The notes beneath the pieces were generated by a model, which was not told the DNA's origin, made no database searches, and saw nothing but the letters and a program-made list of their open reading frames with translations. Source: a virus. Taken from it: a DNA stretch of 64,000 nucleotides. Location of the stretch: positions 1-64,000 of the IMG/VR virus record IMGVR_UViG_3300045988_004573; one strand, written 5' to 3'. Each line of letters starts with the position of its first letter. Positions within the stretch are counted from its first letter, which is position 1. The position numbers were made by a program, and so were the translations under genes. Positions 2,493 through 47,690 of the stretch are shown here, one piece after another.

Positions 2493-3197
2493 TTATTCCT
2501 CCTTATATTTCCATATATAGCCATATGCTGTTTTTCTTTTACCATTGCAACAGCAGCTAACATGGTGACCTTTAACATCTAAGTACTGCTCTGCTTCTGT
2601 AGTAGAACTAAATTCTCTTATAATCTCTCCCGTAATCTTATCTATCATCAATACCTTCTTAGATAGAGCTTTTCTTAGCTTCTCCTTTGTAGTATCTGAT
2701 AAATGCTTACCATAGTTAGGATATTCTACTCCAGACTTGAATCCATACTTCAGAAGCTCCTTAAGTCTATGGTCTCTTTGTAGTTCCCAGCATTTTTTAG
2801 CAATTTCTCTTTGTTGCTCAATTCTTTCTCCAGAATGCTTTCTACCATATTGAGATGCTCTTACTCCTCTATATTCTCTAAGTTTAGCTTTAGTTTCTTC
2901 TGAAACTGCTTTAGCTCCTTCTCCCCCATTAGCTATGTTGTAGCTTCTATTGGATTTCCTATATCTGGCTATTAACAACCTCTCTATCCTGCAAGCAGCA
3001 TCTTTGGGCAGTCTTCTAAATAGTATTATATGCTTAAAGTTTTCCCACCCATACTTTATTATAGCAGAGTTTAGATATGGATTGTGTTTATATCCATAGC
3101 CCCATCTTTTGTTAGGATTATGATACTTAGTTATACCTACATAGACCTTAGAGTTAATTATATTTATGTGCAAATATACTATGTATTCATTTTCCAT
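2493..3197 (-). CDS. GIY-YIG homing endonuclease with NUMOD-type DNA-binding repeats
   Basis: N-terminal YIVYLH..KVYVGIT (GIY-YIG), R..R..., YNIANGGEG; repeated SEETKAKLRE / SDTTKEKLRKA (NUMOD3-like) and C-terminal F.STTEAEQYL...YGYIWKY (NUMOD1/IENR1-like). Confidence 0.85.
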   Translation of the reverse strand: MENEYIVYLHINIINSKVYVGITKYHNPNKRWGYGYKHNPYLNSAIIKYGWENFKHIILFRRLPKDAACRIERLLIARYRKSNRSYNIANGGEGAKAVSEETKAKLREYRGVRASQYGRKHSGERIEQQREIAKKCWELQRDHRLKELLKYGFKSGVEYPNYGKHLSDTTKEKLRKALSKKVLMIDKITGEIIREFSSTTEAEQYLDVKGHHVSCCCNGKRKTAYGYIWKYKEE

Positions 3198-3213
3198 GCT
3201 CTATAATTTTATG

Positions 3214-15018: not shown

Positions 15019-15300
15019 ATGAACTTGTTTTCTAATCTTAAGGTGTATGGTGGTAAGTGGTCTGAGAAGTCATCTCGGAAGTTCTCTCAGGAAGAGCTTG
15101 CTCTTGTAGACAAGGCTCAGGTAGTTGAGAGTCAGTATGGCTCATCATGCTGCTTCTTTATGAAGAATGGTACTACCATGTATGTACCTATGTCTCAGGA
15201 TGCTAAGTCTGAGGTAGGTGACATGGTAGACCTATCTTCTGCTGAGATTGTCACCCTTGAGAAGCAGGGTGAGAAGGACATTCAGCGCATCAGAGGCTAA
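15019..15300 (+). CDS. hypothetical protein, paralog A of a tandem pair
   Basis: 93 aa, same length and a clear majority of residues shared with 15671..15952, while many shared residues use different codons. Confidence 0.6.
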   Translation: MNLFSNLKVYGGKWSEKSSRKFSQEELALVDKAQVVESQYGSSCCFFMKNGTTMYVPMSQDAKSEVGDMVDLSSAEIVTLEKQGEKDIQRIRG

Positions 15301-15670: not shown

Positions 15671-15952
15671 ATGAATCTGTTTTCTAGTCTGAAAGTGTAT
15701 GGAGGCAAATGGGCTGAAAAGTCTTCCAGAAAGTTCTCACAAGAGGAACTTGCACTTGTAACAAAAGCCCAAGTGGTTGAATCTCAGTATGGAAACTCTT
15801 GCTGTTTCTTCATGGCAAATGGTACAACTATGTATGTGCCAATGAGCAATGATGCAAAGAGTGAAGTAGGTGACATCATTGACCTCAAAGAGGCAGAGAT
15901 AGTTACCTTGGAGAAGAGTGGTGAAAAAGACATCCAGAGAATCCGAGGATAG
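15671..15952 (+). CDS. hypothetical protein, paralog B of a tandem pair
   Basis: 93 aa; see 15019..15300. Confidence 0.6.
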   Translation: MNLFSSLKVYGGKWAEKSSRKFSQEELALVTKAQVVESQYGNSCCFFMANGTTMYVPMSNDAKSEVGDIIDLKEAEIVTLEKSGEKDIQRIRG

Positions 15953-16383: not shown

Positions 16384-16481
16384 TGACACTAGGGGAATGG
16401 TTAGGTATAGTCCTATGTACTGCACTTATAATAGGTGCAGTATGGGACATATCTACAGGATATAGCTCTAAAAACAAATAG
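16383..16481 (+). CDS. possible 32-aa membrane micro-protein
   Basis: TAATG overlap with the upstream stop; MTLGEWLGIVLCTALIIGAVWDISTGYSSKNK; below the ORF-track size cutoff. Confidence 0.3.
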   Translation: MTLGEWLGIVLCTALIIGAVWDISTGYSSKNK

Positions 16482-16819
16482 CACTATTATTATTAGGCAG
16501 TTTTACCTCAAGATAGATAGGAACAATAGGACTCACCTAAATGAAAGTCCGCTGTTGAGTGAAAGATTGATGTGAAGGTTAGATGAGTAGGCTCATGGAG
16601 TTGAAAGCAAGTACCGAGGGACTGGGGATCAAGTAGACAATACGCAGTGCATTAGTAGAAAGGAGGCTCTATCAGCAAGGGTACTAATTCTGATGAGTGT
16701 AAAGAGTATGAGGTTTCTATTAAGGAGATGATACTATCAGCCTGACTTATATGGTATCTACTAAACTCTCTGAATATCTTAAAGTACTGGAGGTCACTAG
16801 CTTTAATAAGTACAGTGCT
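16481..16819 (+). ncRNA. candidate ~340-nt structured RNA with an RNase P RNA-like P4 pairing
   Basis: ORF-free; closing helices 16480-16495/16804-16819 and 16505-16515/16775-16794; GAAAGTCCGCTG (16543-16554) can pair with CAGCCTGACTT (16738-16748) followed by AT, resembling CR-I/CR-V. Confidence 0.3.
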
Positions 16820-16821
16820 TA

Positions 16822-16925
16822 AGGTGATTAGCATATATTGGTTAATGCAGTAGTTATCCTATGACATGAGTCTCAGCTTGTTATCTGGATTACTATGCAA
16901 ATAGGCTCAAATCCTATATCACCTA
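16822..16925 (+). ncRNA. tRNA-like RNA with a rod-like extended anticodon arm (no anticodon)
   Basis: acceptor AGGTGAT/ATCACCT; D-arm GCAT-ATATTGGTTA-ATGC; T-arm ATAGG-CTCAAAT-CCTAT; 47 nt between A26 and the variable loop fold as GTAGT.ATCC.ATGACA-loop-TGTTAT.GGAT.ACTAT. Confidence 0.55.
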
Positions 16926-16956
16926 CTATTTATTAACACATTAAATCCACAAGAAA

Positions 16957-17280
16957 ATGAAGAAGTACATTGTTTATGACACCACTGGTAATCCAGTAGG
17001 TGTTCCTTTCAACACATGGAAGGATGCAGAGACCTATAAGATAGTCTATGGGAGACCTGATTGGACTGTCAAGTTAGCACACATTCATATAGACCGCAAG
17101 TCAACTGAGAGACAGAGAAGAGCTGTCTCATTTGTTGAAGAATGGTGTAATATCTCATTTGAAGGTAATATAAATGACTTCTATGAGGTATCAGACTTCC
17201 TTGCAGACTATCTGGACACTGCTAAAGAGATTGCAGAAGATGCTGCTGCATCATATTGGTCAATGATAAATGGTTACTAA
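16957..17280 (+). CDS. hypothetical protein
   Basis: 107-aa ORF. Confidence 0.5.
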   Translation: MKKYIVYDTTGNPVGVPFNTWKDAETYKIVYGRPDWTVKLAHIHIDRKSTERQRRAVSFVEEWCNISFEGNINDFYEVSDFLADYLDTAKEIAEDAAASYWSMINGY

Positions 17281-17524
17281 GATGAACACAGTGAAGAAGA
17301 TATTGAAGGGTGTGTTGCTATGGGTGACAGCCTTCACAGTCATGCTATTCATATCAGGAGTGGATAGTATAACTGACCAAGGTTACTTAGTGCCTTGGTT
17401 GGTAGTTTGTGCCGTTCTATGCTACTTATGCTACAGGTACATATCTGAGGAGGATTTGAATACTCTCTCAGGTGCCAAGTGGCTTGATAAGAAATTAGGT
17501 AGTAGTGATGATGATTTAAGGTAA
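17270..17524 (+). CDS. membrane protein
   Basis: 84 aa with two predicted TM helices. Confidence 0.5.
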   Translation: MVTKMNTVKKILKGVLLWVTAFTVMLFISGVDSITDQGYLVPWLVVCAVLCYLCYRYISEEDLNTLSGAKWLDKKLGSSDDDLR

Positions 17525-17831: not shown

Positions 17832-18018
17832 CATTTTGCTTAGAGTAGATACTGGTTCGAGTCCAGTTGGAGGTACAATGTCTATTTAACCACTATTTCC
17901 TGACTCTGCTGGGCAAAATGACTGAAAATGTGGTGCTAATGGGTAAGCCATAGTTTCTTGTTTTAGCTTGTACTTTGTTCTTAGAAAAGAAGCAAAGCAA
18001 TTGGGGAATCACATTTGG

Positions 18019-18183: not shown

Positions 18184-18586
18184 GGGGCTGTTTGGTTTTG
18201 ACTGGTGGCTACTGGGTATGAGGACATGCAGAGACTGATGGAGAGACATCAAAACTTTAGGTGGCAACAGAATTTCTGCACCTGTAGCTCTTGCTGCTTA
18301 AGCAATCTACTGAGTTGGTCACTGACTTGGAAACAGAATAGTGACAAAACAAATAAGGTCAAGAAGGAAGTATAATAAGGCTATACCTACTTTCAGTGCT
18401 TAATGGCTGTGATGCACACAGAGGGTGTGACCTTTCAGATTTCTTGCATAGATGAATGCAAGTGGTGGATGATGTTGACAATCCAGTCAACCCCAGCAGA
18501 GAACCAACTGCATAATAAAGTGGTAAGCATGTGTAATCCTTATATTGAGGGCTATTAGGACAGGGGTTCGACTCCCCTCAGCTCCA
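18184..18586 (+). ncRNA. ssrA: tmRNA
   Basis: 5' GGGGCTGTTTGGTTTTGAC; 3' GGACAGGGGTTCGACTCCCCTCAGCTCCA; acceptor with G3-U70; internal tag frame ...GGC AAC AGA ATT TCT GCA CCT GTA GCT CTT GCT GCT TAA (..NRISAPVALAA stop, 18263-18301). Confidence 0.85.
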
Positions 18587-18617
18587 CAATTAACATCAAC
18601 AATTAAATTACATTAGA

Positions 18618-19427: not shown

Positions 19428-20840
19428 ATGTGTTCTAAATTAAATCCAAGATTAAAGCCTGCACCTAAGTTTGAGGGCACTCAACTGGCAGGTGGTTATG
19501 GTGCTTTGGCTGCTAGACAATCCAATGTAGCATTGCTTAGAAGAGCAGTGCTGGCTAATCTCCTTTGGGAAGATGTAGCATACATGGATGGAATTTCAGT
19601 AGCCAGTGAGATTAAGAGGTTAATACCTCTGTGCCCTGCTGAGGATGTATATAACATAGCTCTTGAAGCTAGGTTAATGCAGAAGCTGAGACATACTCCA
19701 TTGTTCATAGCAGTGGAAATGTGCAAGTACCCTGAACATAAGTTATTTGTTAAGGACTTGTTACCTAAGATAATCACAAGAGCTGATATGCTCACTGACT
19801 TCTTGGCTATATATTGGAAGGACAAGAAATGCCCTATCTGTAATCAAGCTAAGAAAGGTCTGGCTTTAGCCTTCCACAACTTCAATGAGTATAAGTTGGC
19901 TAAGTATGACAGAGATGCTGCTATCAAGCTCAGAGATGTGATGTTCTTAGTACATACTAAGCCTAGAAACCAATATGAGCAGGAGTTGTTCAATAAGGTA
20001 GCTGAGAGAACTCTTACACCTCCTGAGACATGGGAAGTCATGTTATCTAGAGGTGAGGATAAGAAAGCTACTTGGACTAAGCTCATTACAGAAGGTAAGA
20101 TAGGAGGATTAGCTATGTTGAGGAATATAGCTAATATGCAGAAAGCTAATGTGGATAGAAAGACTATTCAAGATGGTCTTAAAACACTAAGAAGCTCAAT
20201 GCTATTACCTCTTGACTTCTGGAAGGCTGCTAGGATGAACTCAGTATTTGAGAGAGACATTGAGGATGCTATGATTGAGGCATATAAGAACTTACCTAAA
20301 CTTCCTGGTAAGACACTGTTTATAGTGGATGTATCAGGTTCTATGGGTTCTTTAACCTCTGGTAGTTCTCAGTTCAATAGAATGGACCAAGCCTGTGCTA
20401 TGGCTATCTTGGCAGCTAATCAGTGCGAGGACTATGAGCTTGTAGCTACAGCAGGTAATGATGGTTCTAGAAAGAATGCCTCAGAGTGGATTGAATATCC
20501 TAAGAGAGGTTTTGCTCTTGCTCCACAGATAATGGAGACCAGACATAGGATTGGTGGCGGAGGTATATTCACCAGACAATGCCTAGAGTGGTGTAAGGAT
20601 AAGTTCAAAGACAAGAAGTTTGATAGAATTATCATATTCTCAGACTCTCAAGACTGTGACTATCCTGAGAAGAGAGTGCCTAAACCTTTTGGTACTTACA
20701 ACTATATTTGTGATGTGTCAGCACACACAAAAGGTGTAAACTACAGAGGTACATGGACTGCTGAGATAAGTGGTTTCTCGGAGCATTTCATTACATTCAT
20801 TGCAGCAATGGAAGGTGTTCAGAATACCTTTGAAGAATAA
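19428..20840 (+). CDS. rsr: Ro60 ortholog (TROVE domain + vWA/MIDAS)
   Basis: 470 aa; TROVE-like LLWEDVAYMDG, EARLMQKLRHTPLFIAVEM, KYDRDAAIKLRDVMFLVHTKP, LAMLRNIANM; vWA MIDAS FIVDVSGSMGS, GGGG-I-F-T, IIIFSDSQD. These align by eye with recalled human Ro60 motifs ([45 protein letters not shown]). Confidence 0.85.
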   Translation: MCSKLNPRLKPAPKFEGTQLAGGYGALAARQSNVALLRRAVLANLLWEDVAYMDGISVASEIKRLIPLCPAEDVYNIALEARLMQKLRHTPLFIAVEMCKYPEHKLFVKDLLPKIITRADMLTDFLAIYWKDKKCPICNQAKKGLALAFHNFNEYKLAKYDRDAAIKLRDVMFLVHTKPRNQYEQELFNKVAERTLTPPETWEVMLSRGEDKKATWTKLITEGKIGGLAMLRNIANMQKANVDRKTIQDGLKTLRSSMLLPLDFWKAARMNSVFERDIEDAMIEAYKNLPKLPGKTLFIVDVSGSMGSLTSGSSQFNRMDQACAMAILAANQCEDYELVATAGNDGSRKNASEWIEYPKRGFALAPQIMETRHRIGGGGIFTRQCLEWCKDKFKDKKFDRIIIFSDSQDCDYPEKRVPKPFGTYNYICDVSAHTKGVNYRGTWTAEISGFSEHFITFIAAMEGVQNTFEE

Positions 20841-20843
20841 AAC

Positions 20844-20987
20844 AAAGAGTACTGTGTAGTGTTTTGTCAGACTTACTTCATTAACTAAGTGGTATAGTGC
20901 AAAACTTTTAATTTTGATGTCACAGGTTCGAGTCCTGTATGAGATTGGGGAAACCCAAGTCTGACATCTGTTCTCCAGTACTCTTTT
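20844..20987 (+). ncRNA. Y-RNA-like element: tRNA-like cloverleaf enclosed by two long terminal helices
   Basis: starts 4 nt after the rsr stop; 11-bp perfect stem 20844-20854/20976-20986 then TTTT; 8-bp stem 20865-20872/20959-20966; inside: D-arm ACTA-AGTGGTA-TAGT, arm CAAAA-CUUUUAA-TTTTG, T-arm ACAGG-TTCGAGT-CCTGT, plus a GAAA-capped hairpin. Confidence 0.6.
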
Positions 20988-20994
20988 CAATATG

Positions 20995-21125
20995 GAGGAG
21001 TTAGCTCAGTTGGTTAGAGCACTTAATGTTACTCTGTCAAATGTTCCATAGTAATATTGGTGGCAGATAGAGTTACTTCGGAATTGCTAATTCAGTGGTC
21101 ATAGGTTCAAATCCTATACTCCTCC
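20995..21125 (+). tRNA. tRNA gene with ~57-nt insertion after position 26 (anticodon-like loop UUGCUAA)
   Basis: acceptor GAGGAGT/ACTCCTC; canonical D-arm GCTC-AGTTGGTTA-GAGC; T-arm ATAGG-TTCAAAT-CCTAT; insertion ends in AGAGTTACTTC. Confidence 0.6.
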
Positions 21126-21190: not shown

Positions 21191-21328
21191 GGCGGAGTAG
21201 CTAAATGGTAAAGCAACACCCTTACAGGATTTCTCTGGTAAAGCAGTAGTGAGTTGTCAGGGTTACTTCAAGGTTATAGCATTAGTTTTGGGTACTAAAG
21301 TATGTAAGTTCGAGTCTTACCTCCGCCA
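21191..21328 (+). tRNA. tRNA-Pro(UGG)-like gene with ~64-nt insertion between D-arm and anticodon stem
   Basis: acceptor GGCGGAG/CTCCGCC; D-arm GCTA-AATGGTA-AAGC; intact arm TTAGT-UUUGGGU-ACTAA; T-arm GTAAG-TTCGAGT-CTTAC; insertion carries GCAGTAGTGAGTTGTCAGGGTTACTTCAAG. Confidence 0.65.
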
Positions 21329-21532
21329 CTTATTACCTACCTCACCTAGCGTAGTTGTACAGAGTGAGACCTAATAGGAGGCATCAAAGGAACTATCCTA
21401 GTCACACTGGTGTGCTGTTCAGTGAGTGAGAAAATGAGCAGCCCCGAAGCATAGTGGGGATAATGTCAAGGAGTACCATCCTTAAGCAGCTATGTAAAAC
21501 TGGTTGACAATCTGGAAAGACAGATAATAAAT

Positions 21533-21660
21533 GGGGGAGTAGCTAAATTGGTTACAATACTCTAGCTGTTATTCTCTGGAAGCAGTAGTGTTAGCAAAGA
21601 GTTACTTCAAGCATTCATCTGATAAATGAAAGTATATTGGTTCGAGTCCAATCTCCCCCA
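21533..21660 (+). tRNA. tRNA-Ile(GAU)-like gene with ~53-nt insertion in the D-loop region
   Basis: acceptor GGGGGAG/CTCCCCC; intact arm TTCAT-CUGAUAA-ATGAA; T-arm ATTGG-TTCGAGT-CCAAT; insertion carries GCAGTAGTGTTAGCAAAGAGTTACTTCAAG. Confidence 0.65.
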
Positions 21661-44470: not shown

Positions 44471-44736
44471 AAGACTTGATTAAACTTAAGTCAAGAGGCT
44501 ATGAGGAGAACTACTTGAAGAAGCTAAAGAAACCTGATGGTTCAGAGTCAAAGACTTATGTACTCAAGGTATCTACTCCCTATCTTAGATGTGGGGAAGT
44601 GGAAGGAGGCAGAAAGTTCATTGACCTATCAGGGGGTCCTATGATTGTAGTAGGTGCTTATCTTGAGGAAGCTGAGGCAGTAGTCAAATCAATAGACTTC
44701 ACTGTAGGTTATGGCTACACTATAACATTTGAGTAA
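44467..44736 (+). CDS. hypothetical protein
   Basis: 89-aa ORF with 4-nt overlap. Confidence 0.45.
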   Translation: MKDLIKLKSRGYEENYLKKLKKPDGSESKTYVLKVSTPYLRCGEVEGGRKFIDLSGGPMIVVGAYLEEAEAVVKSIDFTVGYGYTITFE

Positions 44737-46857
44737 TGGATGAGTGGTTTGAAGAAGGAAAGCATGAAGCTATCAAGTACTATGGTGAGCAGATATACTA
44801 TGTGTCTGGAGTTGCAAACTTATTTAGTGATGCAGAGATAGGATGTCCTTATAAGAATATATCAGTAAGGGAATCACTGGAGCTTCTCAGTACACTAAAG
44901 GTTGTAGGATTGGATAGTGAGACTAGAGGTACAGAGATATGGCAAGGTCAGCTGCTGTTACTTCAATTAGGTAACAAGCACTTTCAAGTAGTCATTGACT
45001 GTACCACTGTAGATGTCAAGCTATACAAGGAGTTCCTTGAGAGTGATAGGCTTTTCATAATTCATAATGCCAAGTTTGACCTAAGATGGTTATATAAGGA
45101 GGGTATTGTAATCAGAAATGTATTTGATACTTTCCTTGCAGAGAAGATACTGTTCCTGGGATTTCCACCAGGAATAGTGTCACTCAGCTTGCAGGCTTGT
45201 TGTGACAGGTATCTTAATGTCTACCTTGACAAGACAGTCAGAGGTAAGATTAACTATGGTGTCACTGATGAGGTAATAATCTATTCAGCCAATGATGTTG
45301 TGTTCCTTGAAGATGTCATGGAAGCACAGTTAAAGCAGATAGAGGCTAGAGGTCAGAGAGTCGCCTTAGAGATAGAGAACAGGTTTGTGAGAGTATTGGC
45401 TTATATTGAGTTCTGTGGTATAAGGCTTGACATTGAAAGGTGGAAAGCCAAGATGGTTAAGGATGCTGAAAGGCTGAGAGTAGCAGAGCAGAAACTCAAT
45501 GATTGGGTTGTAGAGTATGTGATGTCCAAAGGAGACACAGATGCTATAGCCTATGATGTTCAGACTAAGAGAGGAAAGGTAAAGAGAGCTAAGGGTACTA
45601 TAGGTAAGTATGTAGCTATAGACCCACAGCAGAACCTCTTTGAGGAGAACAAGCCAAGATGTATCATCAACTGGAACAGTAACAAGCAGGTTATACCATT
45701 GTTTGAGGAGTTAGGGTTCAATGTATGGGCTAAAGACAAGAAGACTGGAAAGATGAAGAAGTCAGTAGACTCAAAGCTGCTTAAACAGCAGTTGGATAAG
45801 AGTCCTCTGGCTAAGTTATATCTTGATTACTCTGGTGAGTTCAAGGTAGTTACTTCATTTGGTCAGAACTTCTTGGATGCAGTCAATCCTGTTACAGGGA
45901 GAATACACCCTACATTCAATCAGATGATGGACACTGGCAGGTTGAGTTGTGGTAAAGGAGGAAAGAAAGGTGGAGGTAAGACTAAGGATGATGACTTTGC
46001 TGAGGAAGAGCAGACTGAGCAGGATGCTGATGTTATCATAGCAGTAGATAAGAGTGTGAATGTTCAGCAGTTGCCATCTGATGCAGAGACTAGAGCTTGC
46101 TTCATACCTGATAAAGACCACATGCTAGTTGATTGTGATTATGGAGACCAAGAAGGTCATGTCTTTACTGAGTTAAGTCAGGATAAGGCATGGATTGATT
46201 TCTATAATGACCCCAATGAGAGAGATGGTCACTCCTTTGTAGCCAAGATGATATTCTCTGATGAGCTAAAGGATATACCAGAGAAGGAAGTAAAGAAGAA
46301 GAGGAAAGACTTGAGGGATGCTGCAAAGCCAGCAAGGTTTACCTTTAATTATAATGGGACAGCCAATGCCTTAGCAGCTAACACAGGTAAGTCTCTTGAG
46401 TTCTGTGAGTTGTGCTTTAAGAAGTACTTCTCAGCATTCAAAGGTATAGCCAGCTACTTTAGAGTGAGTAAGGCTAATATGTGGAAAAGAGGTTATATCC
46501 TAATCTCAAAGTACACTGGACTGAGGGCTTACATCTATGACTATCCTATACTGAAAGGCATAGAGAGAAGAATCAAGAGAATGGGTCAGGAGTTCTGGGA
46601 TTCCTATAGGAAAGCCAGAGACTCTGGTCAAGTCATTGATGATGTCCCTGCTGTGGTTCTTCAACAGATGGCAAGGAAGTTTGCCAATGGAGAACCTATG
46701 GAGGCTATTGCTATAAGGTATGAGTATAAGGTCAAGAAGGGTAAGAAGATTGAGACAAAGTATATTGATATTAACAGGGAAACTGTATTGATTAAACTCT
46801 GGAAGCATCTGGCAAAGAGAAGGTCATCATCTGAGAACCAGTCCTGTAACTATCCCT
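44736..46857 (+). CDS. family A DNA polymerase, exon 1
   Basis: Exo I GLDSET, Exo II IHNAKFDLRWL, Exo III YSANDV; pol motif A VDCDYGDQE; motif B RDAAKPARFTFNYNG; the reading frame leaves the PolA consensus after ..NQSCNYP. Confidence 0.85.
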
Positions 46858-47081
46858 TAATTGTGGGGGCATATAGTGGTGACATTATATGAAAACTCAG
46901 TGAATTGCTGGAAGGCTAAGGAGAAATCTATGCTAATCAGCAGCCAAGACTTGTAGAAATGCAAGTAAGGTTCAGAGACTAATCAAAGTAAGCTAAGGAG
47001 AAATCTATGCTGAAATGGGCAAGAGTGCTGAGTATCTCTTAATTATTTATTTACCCTATTGGATAATTAAGAAATAATTTG

Positions 47082-47114: not shown

Positions 47115-47690
47115 ATGAAGAGATGTTCAAGTTGTGGTAAGTTAAAGGATGAATCAGAGTTTTATCATTATAAGTCATCAAAGGATGGCTTGACTCACCA
47201 GTGTAAGCAATGTATGTCTGAATATAGGGCTTCTAAAAGAGAGCATTATAAAGAGTATATGGCTTATAGGAGAGAGGTGGATAATGAAACTATAAAAGCT
47301 AATAGGAGAAAGCATTATAGGAATCATCCTGAGAGTAGAATGTTAATGGCAGCCAAGCAAAGAGCTAAGAATCAAGGATTAGAATTTAACTTGACTATAG
47401 ATGATATAGTCATCCCTGATAAATGCCCTTTGTTAGAAGTTCCTTTTGTTGCTGGAGAAAAAGGTAATTATGAATATACACCCTCCCTTGATAGAATAGA
47501 CCCTACTAAGGGATATATTAAAGGGAATGTATGGGTAATTACTAAAAGAGCAAATACAATGAAGAATAATGCAACAAGGGAGGAATTATTAAAGTTTGCT
47601 GATAACATCTATAAATATTTTGGAGATAATGATATAGTCCAACCTATTGAGAAATCAATAGAACTACAGGATAAAGAGCCTGTAGGGTAA
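47115..47690 (+). CDS. intron-encoded HNH-family homing endonuclease
   Basis: Cys-rich N-terminus CSSCGK..CKQC; SLDRIDPTKGYIKGNVWVITKRANTMKNN; paralog of 52570..53115. Confidence 0.8.
   Translation: MKRCSSCGKLKDESEFYHYKSSKDGLTHQCKQCMSEYRASKREHYKEYMAYRREVDNETIKANRRKHYRNHPESRMLMAAKQRAKNQGLEFNLTIDDIVIPDKCPLLEVPFVAGEKGNYEYTPSLDRIDPTKGYIKGNVWVITKRANTMKNNATREELLKFADNIYKYFGDNDIVQPIEKSIELQDKEPVG

Follow-up and report, generated by a model that had tools for sequence, protein, structure and literature searches.

In a 64,000-nt stretch of viral DNA (positions 1 to 64,000 of IMG/VR record IMGVR_UViG_3300045988_004573, hereafter the window) we have identified a structured RNA with a terminal rod that abuts a non-decoding mimic of transfer RNA (tRNA). 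The same arrangement is found in other Kehishuvirus-like crAss phages of human-gut Bacteroides. The large RNA and the tRNA-like element together occupy 16480-16925, a region that is non-coding. With moderate confidence we read the pair as an undescribed phage non-coding RNA module on the + strand, yielding a stable early RNA that host RNase P would cut from a polycistronic transcript. The RNA family is new, as it is not in Rfam 15 and no description of it was found in the literature searched, and its layout is akin to that of MALAT1-mascRNA, of Y RNAs and of the ornate RNAs that lie by tRNA genes. A first-pass annotation, made from the letters of the window alone, had proposed a large structured RNA tied to a tRNA-like element in a tRNA-rich phage. 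That general idea is supported by our analysis, since the RNA is non-coding, conserved and covarying and has an analogous cassette in relatives.

Fold and covariation of the large RNA

We define type A as a rod-closed RNA followed by a tRNA-like element as in the window. Relatives of this type were gathered in three ways, through the downstream protein, through exact patterns in IMG/VR and through one metagenome scan. The resulting alignment (A5) holds 12 distinct sequences including the window, all of them from human-gut assemblies and from phage contigs of about 97-104 kb; L218 and L225 belong to the same lineage as L002 and L014. The large RNA consists of the following parts.

16480-16819, + strand: rod-closed structured non-coding RNA of about 340 nt, type A, with covariation in A5 and no conserved open reading frame (ORF)
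16480-16512, + strand: 5' strand of the terminal rod, with 16787-16819 as its partner in every homologue
16787-16819, + strand: 3' strand of the terminal rod, stopping 2 nt short of the tRNA-like element
16480-85 / 16814-19: helix P1
16490-16501 / 16796-16809: helix P1b
16505-12 / 16787-94: helix P2
16516-16523 (GAUAGGAA) / 16714-16721 (UUUCUAUU), + strand: helix P3, 95.8% paired, 1 compensatory pair
16536-16663, + strand: inner branched domain, 3 compensatory pairs in A5
16536-38/16661-63, 16550-55/16644-49 and 16556-60/16591-95: helices of the inner domain
16567-82 and 16596-16616: hairpins of the inner domain
16649-63 (GCAUUAGUAGAAAGG): conserved strand of the inner domain
16666-16698, + strand: hairpin GCUCUAUCAG...CUGAUGAGU, 2 compensatory pairs
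16724-16780, + strand: variable peripheral hairpin, stem 16730-35/16753-58

The nested long-range helices that the first-pass annotation had drawn around the region are formed in all homologues. In 12 of 12 sequences the two terminal segments, each of ~33 nt, are paired with each other at -17 to -25 kcal/mol, and the pairing survives compensatory change: AGCACU/AGUGCU becomes AGUACUAU/AUAGUACU in L223/L224, and such changes in the rod are present in L218 as well. An alternative local hairpin, 16783-89 / 16813-19, is disrupted in L223/L224 and L225. Three branches make up the rest of the molecule, namely an apical domain (16556-16643), the hairpin at 16666-98 and the variable hairpin at 16724-80. 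The hairpin at 16666-16698 changes from CUC/GAG to CUUG/..AAG in L216, L222 and L050. L218/L225 have lost the variable hairpin, and most of the remaining homologues have it extended by 37-50 nt.

The extra 37-50 nt of the variable hairpin are inserted opposite ~16748 (in L219, L217, L050, L221 and others), and one example, AUAGCAUAUACUUAGUUAUCCCUAUAU, is similar to the 5' half of the tRNA-like element (UUAGCAUAUAUUGG...GUAGUUAUCCUAU). This resemblance suggests that a duplication or recombination between the large RNA and the tRNA-like element may have taken place.

Across A5, 96.3% of the cells are paired, compared to 95.2% in shuffles and 34-39% in slid controls. Compensatory pairs number 9 in the observed alignment against 4.8 +- 1.4 in shuffles, of which 1 in 500 reaches 9, and 1-3 in slid controls. 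The collection of homologues that the first-pass annotation had suggested, with this count of compensatory pairs, came out in favor of a conserved fold, 12 type-A sequences contributing. Many of the pairs are G-U, which would read A-C on the opposite strand, and the RNA is therefore placed on the + strand. Two further candidate structures were tried and rejected. For the AUUAGUAG strand, the 3' trailer CUACUAUU and the D arm were considered as partners, but either pairing is lost in L214, L218 and L223-225 with no compensatory change, and a hammerhead-like CUGAUGA at 16690-96 reads CCUGGUA in L050/L216 and has no Rfam match.

The absence of a plausible ORF from 16482-16956, reported earlier, holds in the comparison. 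Only two ORFs of at least 25 aa lie inside this interval, a GTG ORF that comes in from upstream (16435-16575) and a 60-aa ORF on the minus strand (16652-16834). The longest ORFs of the 12 homologues vary in strand, frame, position and length, so that none is conserved, and indels of 13, 37 and 54 nt interrupt them.

Searches against known families returned nothing at the locus. Rfam 15 gives no match there at the gathering score or at E <= 10, and the same is true of the homologues L018 and L216. The models on which the first-pass annotation had pinned its check, those for RNase P (RNaseP_bact_a/b), ROOL, GOLLD and group I introns, likewise have no locus match at E <= 10, nor do the archaeal and type T RNase P models or those of group II introns, while the same search recovers a group I intron at 46848-47081. 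A blastn search of the locus against annotated phages left type A without a match, and a search with the 14-nt pattern CATTAGTAGAAAGG returned mainly chance matches and zero new homologues.

The first-pass annotation had gone on to suggest, grading the idea as weak itself, that the large RNA is a phage RNase P-like ribozyme. The GAAAGUCCG segment does resemble the CR-I motif of RNase P RNA and a partner strand can be drawn in the window, where GAAAGUCCGCUG and CAGCCUGACUU would form P4, the helix of CR-I with CR-V. This pairing is drawable in the window alone, and neither strand is kept in the homologues. Where CR-I requires GAGGAAAGUCCG, the 5' motif varies as GAAAGUCC, GAAAAUCC, GAAAAUAU and GAAAAGCC; GAAAAUAUACUG, GAAAAUCCACUG or GAAAAGCCACUG stands in place of the 5' strand in other homologues, and the partner of that strand in the comparative model is 16644-53. 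The 3' strand (16738-48) is the tip of the variable hairpin 16724-16780, in a loop that is missing along with its hairpin from L218/L225. With its sole helix unconserved and zero matches to RNase P families at E <= 10, the RNase P reading does not survive the comparison; it is refuted, and we assign it practically no probability.

The tRNA-like element and its counterparts in relatives

Downstream of the rod lies a cloverleaf with the following parts.

16822-16925, + strand: tRNA-like element without anticodon, the cloverleaf being the minimum-free-energy fold (z = -2.45)
16822-28/16918-24: acceptor stem, 7 bp, AGGUGAU/AUCACCU
16831-48: D arm, 4-bp stem, loop AUAUUGGUUA
16850-16896: rod replacing the anticodon arm, about 20 bp, interrupted, 47 nt
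16901-17: T arm, 5-bp stem and 7-nt loop CUCAAAU
A16925: discriminator, CCA not encoded
16926-16956, + strand: 3' flank, TTATTAACA(C/A)ATTAA, common to type-B cassettes and leading into ORF 16957-17280

The element has the upper half of a tRNA, with acceptor stem, D stem with a GG loop and T stem-loop, and lacks the 7-nt anticodon loop on a 5-bp stem that a decoding tRNA carries. The first-pass description of a tRNA-like RNA at 16822-16925 with a rod in place of the anticodon arm is therefore confirmed, the rod being an interrupted one of about 20 bp. At the anticodon-arm position we find 47 nt of rod in the window and 35 nt in L225, and six homologues have just 5 bp and a loop of 3 nt. The element lacks an anticodon, and the arm in its place is dispensable. 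Neither ARAGORN nor the Rfam tRNA model calls the element in the window or in L216, and ARAGORN reports the L014 copy as a 93-nt 'tRNA-Arg(tct)'.

The upper half of the element is 97.5% identical in the 12 homologues, a value to be read with the fact that most of them were retrieved with a 21-24-nt T-arm pattern so that T-arm conservation is partly by construction, compared to 77% for the core of the large RNA; identity of the downstream protein is ~50-56% in those same lineages. All upper-half pairs are retained, and since the type-A stems are invariant they show zero covariation. The loops and the variable region are near-invariant beside the stems. An earlier claim that the GCAGUAGU junction of this element is shared with an insertion family stands in part: it has 7 matches in the window against 3.3 expected (2/100 shuffles), but 9 of the 12 homologues read GCAAUAGU. 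Elsewhere in the window the TTATTAACA motif of the flank shows no enrichment. Neither the 3' half of the type-A element nor that of its type-B counterpart (described below) is found in any of 185,579 representative bacterial and archaeal genomes, and an attP site or a copy of a host tRNA is rejected.

The comparison with relatives was anchored on the TROVE/Ro60 homologue (Rsr) of the window. This protein is conserved across 46 related phage contigs at 73-96% identity. With the TROVE proteins of the PhiCrAssBcn phages, which infect Bacteroides intestinalis, it has 79.6% identity. The TROVE gene of phage crAss001 (Gp96) is the syntenic locus to the rsr gene of the window. The PhiCrAssBcn phages and crAss001 belong to Crassvirales, Steigviridae, Kehishuvirus, and on the basis of this identity and synteny the window is assigned to a Kehishuvirus-like crAss phage from the human gut.

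Among the 46 related loci fetched through Rsr, about 25 carry a second form, type B, at the syntenic position, 5' of the gene homologous to ORF 17270-17524. It consists of about 480 nt without an ORF followed by a tRNA-like element of about 90 nt, which has an "anticodon loop" of 24 nt in its 56-bit match to the Rfam tRNA model and to which ARAGORN assigns mutually inconsistent anticodons. In an alignment of 20 type-B sequences (A4), we counted 22 compensatory pairs compared to 18.0 +- 1.7 in shuffles (13/500 reach 22) and 1-8 in slid controls; at the level of compensatory cells the difference is 116 against 40 in shuffles (0/500 reach 116) and 1-22 in slid controls. Covariation covers the D stem (GCUC/GAGC to GUUC/GAAC) and the rod of the tRNA-like element, and a covarying long-range helix closes a domain of about 300 nt that ends 5-10 nt before that element. 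Short motifs common to the two types (CACCU..GAAA, GAGGGACU and AUAGUAG) sit in different structural contexts. We regard types A and B as analogues in position and architecture that share a 3' flank, and do not claim homology. Within type B, the segment ACCAAUGGGCUAAU (L018 ~2179-2192 with 2571-2584; A4 columns 96-109 with 575-588) has 13 bp of complementarity to the acceptor/D-arm side of its own tRNA-like element, and to many ordinary tRNAs as well, both sides being invariant.

The type-B cassette of crAss001 stands at the upstream end of the early operon, flanked by Gp104 and Gp103. Its tRNA-like element is annotated as a pseudo "tRNA-OTHER ?(Leu|Ile)(taat)" and the RNA upstream is unannotated. 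Early genes of crAss001 ("a transcriptional regulator ... and a TROVE domain protein") are on at 0-10 min after infection, and by analogy with phi14:2 their transcription is attributed to the virion RNA polymerase (PMC8375218). Gp104 itself, a 45-aa ORF labelled 'transcriptional regulator', is inserted in the AT-rich linker of the type-B region (L058 696-830; L033), and most relatives are without it.

A miniature of the same layout is found in L229 (1779-1935), where a 25-bp rod closes an RNA of about 105 nt and an acceptor/T-arm minihelix follows after a linker of 4 nt (z = -6.0). The hairpin loop of this RNA reads GUGAAGAAUAGUAG, and its motif UGAAUAAUAGUAG recurs at the tip of a covarying hairpin in type-B and type-C RNAs. 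Remnants made of T arm, acceptor 3' strand and flank are located in L031 (~410-505), L041 (~3110-3210) and L049 (~2625-2725); the L031 deletion fuses RNA hairpin 2 to the rod at a short repeat (microhomology).

Gene neighbourhood

Other features of the window are listed here.

19428-20840, + strand: TROVE/Ro60 (Rsr) homologue, Pfam TROVE 6e-11, phrog_850, early module
18184-18589: transfer-messenger RNA (tmRNA), Rfam 90 bits, missing from the ARAGORN list of the window
20995-21125, 21193-21329 and also ~21510-21652: extra-arm tRNA-like genes 3' of rsr, with an arm of about 60 nt between the D and anticodon arms
46848-47081: group I intron, Rfam 65 bits, between ORFs 44736-46892 (PolA-like) and 47115-47690
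Whole window: 29 tRNA genes

The locus is flanked by a 32-aa ORF ending at 16481 and by a 107-aa ORF starting at 16957 (16957-17280). The 107-aa protein has no Pfam or PHROG family and no match to a fold in the PDB at E <= 0.001. It has 52 unnamed homologues and a confident AlphaFold model (pLDDT 91), and yields no functional clue. A scan for promoters and terminators gave counts close to those of shuffles and no site delimiting the RNA.

The window also encodes a PolA-type DNA polymerase, whose gene is probably split by the group I intron, and an ORF of 2167 aa. Tags encoded by the tmRNA of related loci include DNTYRVAA* and ASGGLC*. Of the extra-arm genes, the one at 20995-21125 scores 47.5 bits with the Rfam tRNA model over 131 nt and the one at 21193-21329 has a perfect acceptor, GGCGGAG/CTCCGCC. 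The extra-arm scaffolds of L039/L041/L043 carry different anticodon loops, and in L185 they are deleted along with rsr. Directly 3' of tRNA-Arg(cct), a tRNA 3'-half remnant (T arm ACUGGUUCGAGUCCAGU and acceptor 3' strand) is found at 17840-17880 and is 100% conserved in L002. Upstream of the locus, two paralogous 93-aa ORFs (15019-15300 and 15671-15952, ~86% identical) are separated by a 370-nt stretch without an ORF that has a terminator-like hairpin at its start.

Processing, alternative readings and significance

In the reading that we favor, the module would be transcribed within a long early polycistronic RNA. A 7-bp acceptor stem together with a T arm is the main determinant for RNase P, and these features are the reason why YrlA of M. 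smegmatis is cut by this enzyme (PMC4201824). For that reason we infer that host RNase P would cut at 16821/16822, the 5' edge of the tRNA-like element. Such a cut would free the upstream RNA with its 3' end held in the terminal rod, and the rod may serve in addition as a stalk for processing of the RNase III type, in the manner of a ribosomal RNA (rRNA) operon. Once freed, the RNA would function early as a stable effector, probably within the RNA-metabolism module of the phage (tRNAs, tmRNA, Ro60 and polynucleotide kinase).

Several observations weigh against this reading. The folding energy of the whole region compared to shuffles gives z = +0.77 on the + strand and -0.51 on the - strand; at +0.77 there is no thermodynamic signal for the region as a whole, and the support is comparative. 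The T-arm conservation is inflated by the retrieval pattern mentioned above, and the processing of the module by RNase P and RNase III consists of steps that we infer. A type-B profile (nhmmer) has no match at 16480-16925, and the two types cannot be aligned by sequence. In nature the element is dispensable, as it is absent from L015 and L056, and just the 3' half of the tRNA-like element is left in L031, L041, L049 and L229. Survival of this half alone hints that conservation could in part serve another use, for example in signalling to the gene downstream.

It is conceivable that the window represents one member of a modular family in Kehishuvirus-like phages, crAss001 included, in which a rod-closed RNA with a tRNA-like handle takes at least three to four mutually unalignable forms. 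Such an RNA would be a new kind of early effector, set free from the transcript of the virion polymerase by punctuation in the style of tRNAs. Under this wider proposal, which we put forward tentatively and hold to be somewhat improbable, the effector could be a Ro60-independent scaffold, or a decoy whose near-invariant tRNA upper half engages a host tRNA-binding enzyme or a tRNA-targeting defence.

One alternative explanation is a Y-RNA-like partner of the phage Ro60/Rsr protein, with the terminal rod as the Ro60-binding stem and the tRNA-like element as an effector module, as in YrlA/Yrn1. On the same strand, 2.5 kb downstream, is the TROVE/Ro60 gene, which in crAss001 shares the early operon with the cassette, although the two do not strictly go together. 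Y RNAs of bacteria and phages (YrlA, Yrn1, Yrl1/2) are encoded near rsr, have a 5'/3' closing stem and often bear a tRNA-like domain without a working anticodon (PMC4201824; PMC12135203), and Yrn1 has the same unpermuted order of arms. In favor of this explanation also counts that a canonical YrlA was not found in the window, the best candidate (21 bits, E = 0.9, gathering score 69) being two adjacent tRNAs at 20896-21053. However, the locus has no Rfam YrlA or Y_RNA match, and the CGAA / GNCGAA motif is unconserved, with AACGAAAA in some homologues and AAUGAAAG in the window. The closing rod is without GNCGAAN0-1G / CGAA, and the one site that resembles CGAA (16541-47, AUGAAAG in the window) is unconserved. 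At 3-4 times the usual size, the phage RNA (~450 nt in all) is far from the ~100-130 nt of Y RNAs, and its tRNA-like element is a separate 3' module rather than being embedded in the stem. Natural variants uncouple the two genes: L185 (contig 3300045988_017028) is cleanly without rsr and the adjacent extra-arm tRNA-like genes, yet keeps the RNA, the tRNA-like element and the tmRNA; in L202 no rsr lies within 9 kb; and L015 and L056 have rsr without the element. As Y-RNA candidates, the extra-arm genes immediately downstream of rsr are better placed. The deletion variants weaken a link to the phage Ro60 protein, possible though it is, and we consider the Y-RNA explanation improbable.

A decayed tRNA gene with a structured spacer and no RNA function, serving only as an RNase III stalk, an RNase P site or a 5' leader for the downstream small genes, would explain why the cassette is exchanged jointly with the gene that follows it (the 107-aa ORF for type A, Gp103 for type B), why the 3' half of the tRNA-like element and its flank outlast deletion of the rest, and why the element is frequently lost or truncated. 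A conserved branched interior with single-stranded motifs, ~340 nt long, is nevertheless far beyond the needs of a processing stalk, and the near-invariance of the tRNA-like loops and variable region extends beyond the stems; we judge this explanation distinctly improbable. Much less likely still is an ornate RNA of the ROOL/GOLLD kind forming RNA-only multimers. As with those RNAs, ours is large, branched and purine-rich, has variable peripheral hairpins and adjoins tRNA genes in a phage. ROOL and GOLLD are roughly 580 and 800 nt, compared to 340 nt for the smaller phage RNA, which has no covariance-model match to either at E <= 10 and comes from a different host range (Bacteroides crAss-like phages). 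ROOL and GOLLD are reported to form homo-oligomeric complexes (PMC12286853). A self-splicing intron, another mobile RNA element or a protein-coding region is scarcely credible. The window does contain a true group I intron elsewhere (46848-47081), and a small ORF is inserted in the type-B region of crAss001. Against this, no intron family matches the locus, L018 or L216, no exons are split (the flanking ORF stops at 16481 and the tRNA-like element is complete in itself), no ORF is conserved, and the sequence is missing from the 185,579 representative genomes.

Among known systems, the phage module is close in layout to MALAT1-mascRNA and MEN-beta-menRNA, in which a long structured non-coding RNA is followed by a non-decoding tRNA-like cloverleaf where RNase P cuts and so sets the 3' end of the upstream RNA, as it would in the phage. 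The tRNA-like element stands directly 3' of the long RNA in each phage form, with linkers of 2 nt in the window, 5-10 nt in type B and 4 nt in L229. The MALAT1 and MEN-beta RNAs are eukaryotic and nuclear and have no sequence relation to the phage RNA; they end in a triple-helix cap, whereas the phage 3' end, left by a putative cleavage, would sit in the 5'/3' terminal rod. In rRNA operons the paired 5' and 3' flanks form an RNase III stalk and spacer tRNAs are cut out by RNase P, and phage T4 has stable RNAs C and D in its tRNA cluster. Common to these and to our module would be a stable RNA excised from a polycistronic transcript, with flanks paired as a long stalk and an adjacent tRNA shape. 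Unlike in the rRNA operon, the phage stalk is part of the 340-nt RNA itself, and RNase III would be the presumptive enzyme. The tRNA-like domain of tmRNA also keeps acceptor and T arms and has a long helix for the anticodon arm. By contrast, the phage element has a full D arm, G3-C70 instead of the G3-U70 alanine identity pair and no mRNA-like part, and the phage has a separate true tmRNA (18184-18589).

Phages of the crAss-like group count among the commonest viruses in the human gut, and crAss001 serves as the principal model for laboratory work on them. If our reading is true, the early operon of crAss001 encodes an unannotated structured RNA of ~300-480 nt together with a non-decoding tRNA mimic that its record lists as a 'pseudo tRNA'. 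An RNA player would thereby be added to the earliest step of infection, beside the phage Ro60, the tmRNA, the odd tRNAs and the polynucleotide kinase. The MALAT1 layout, a long RNA ended by a tRNA-like element, would then reach into bacteriophages.

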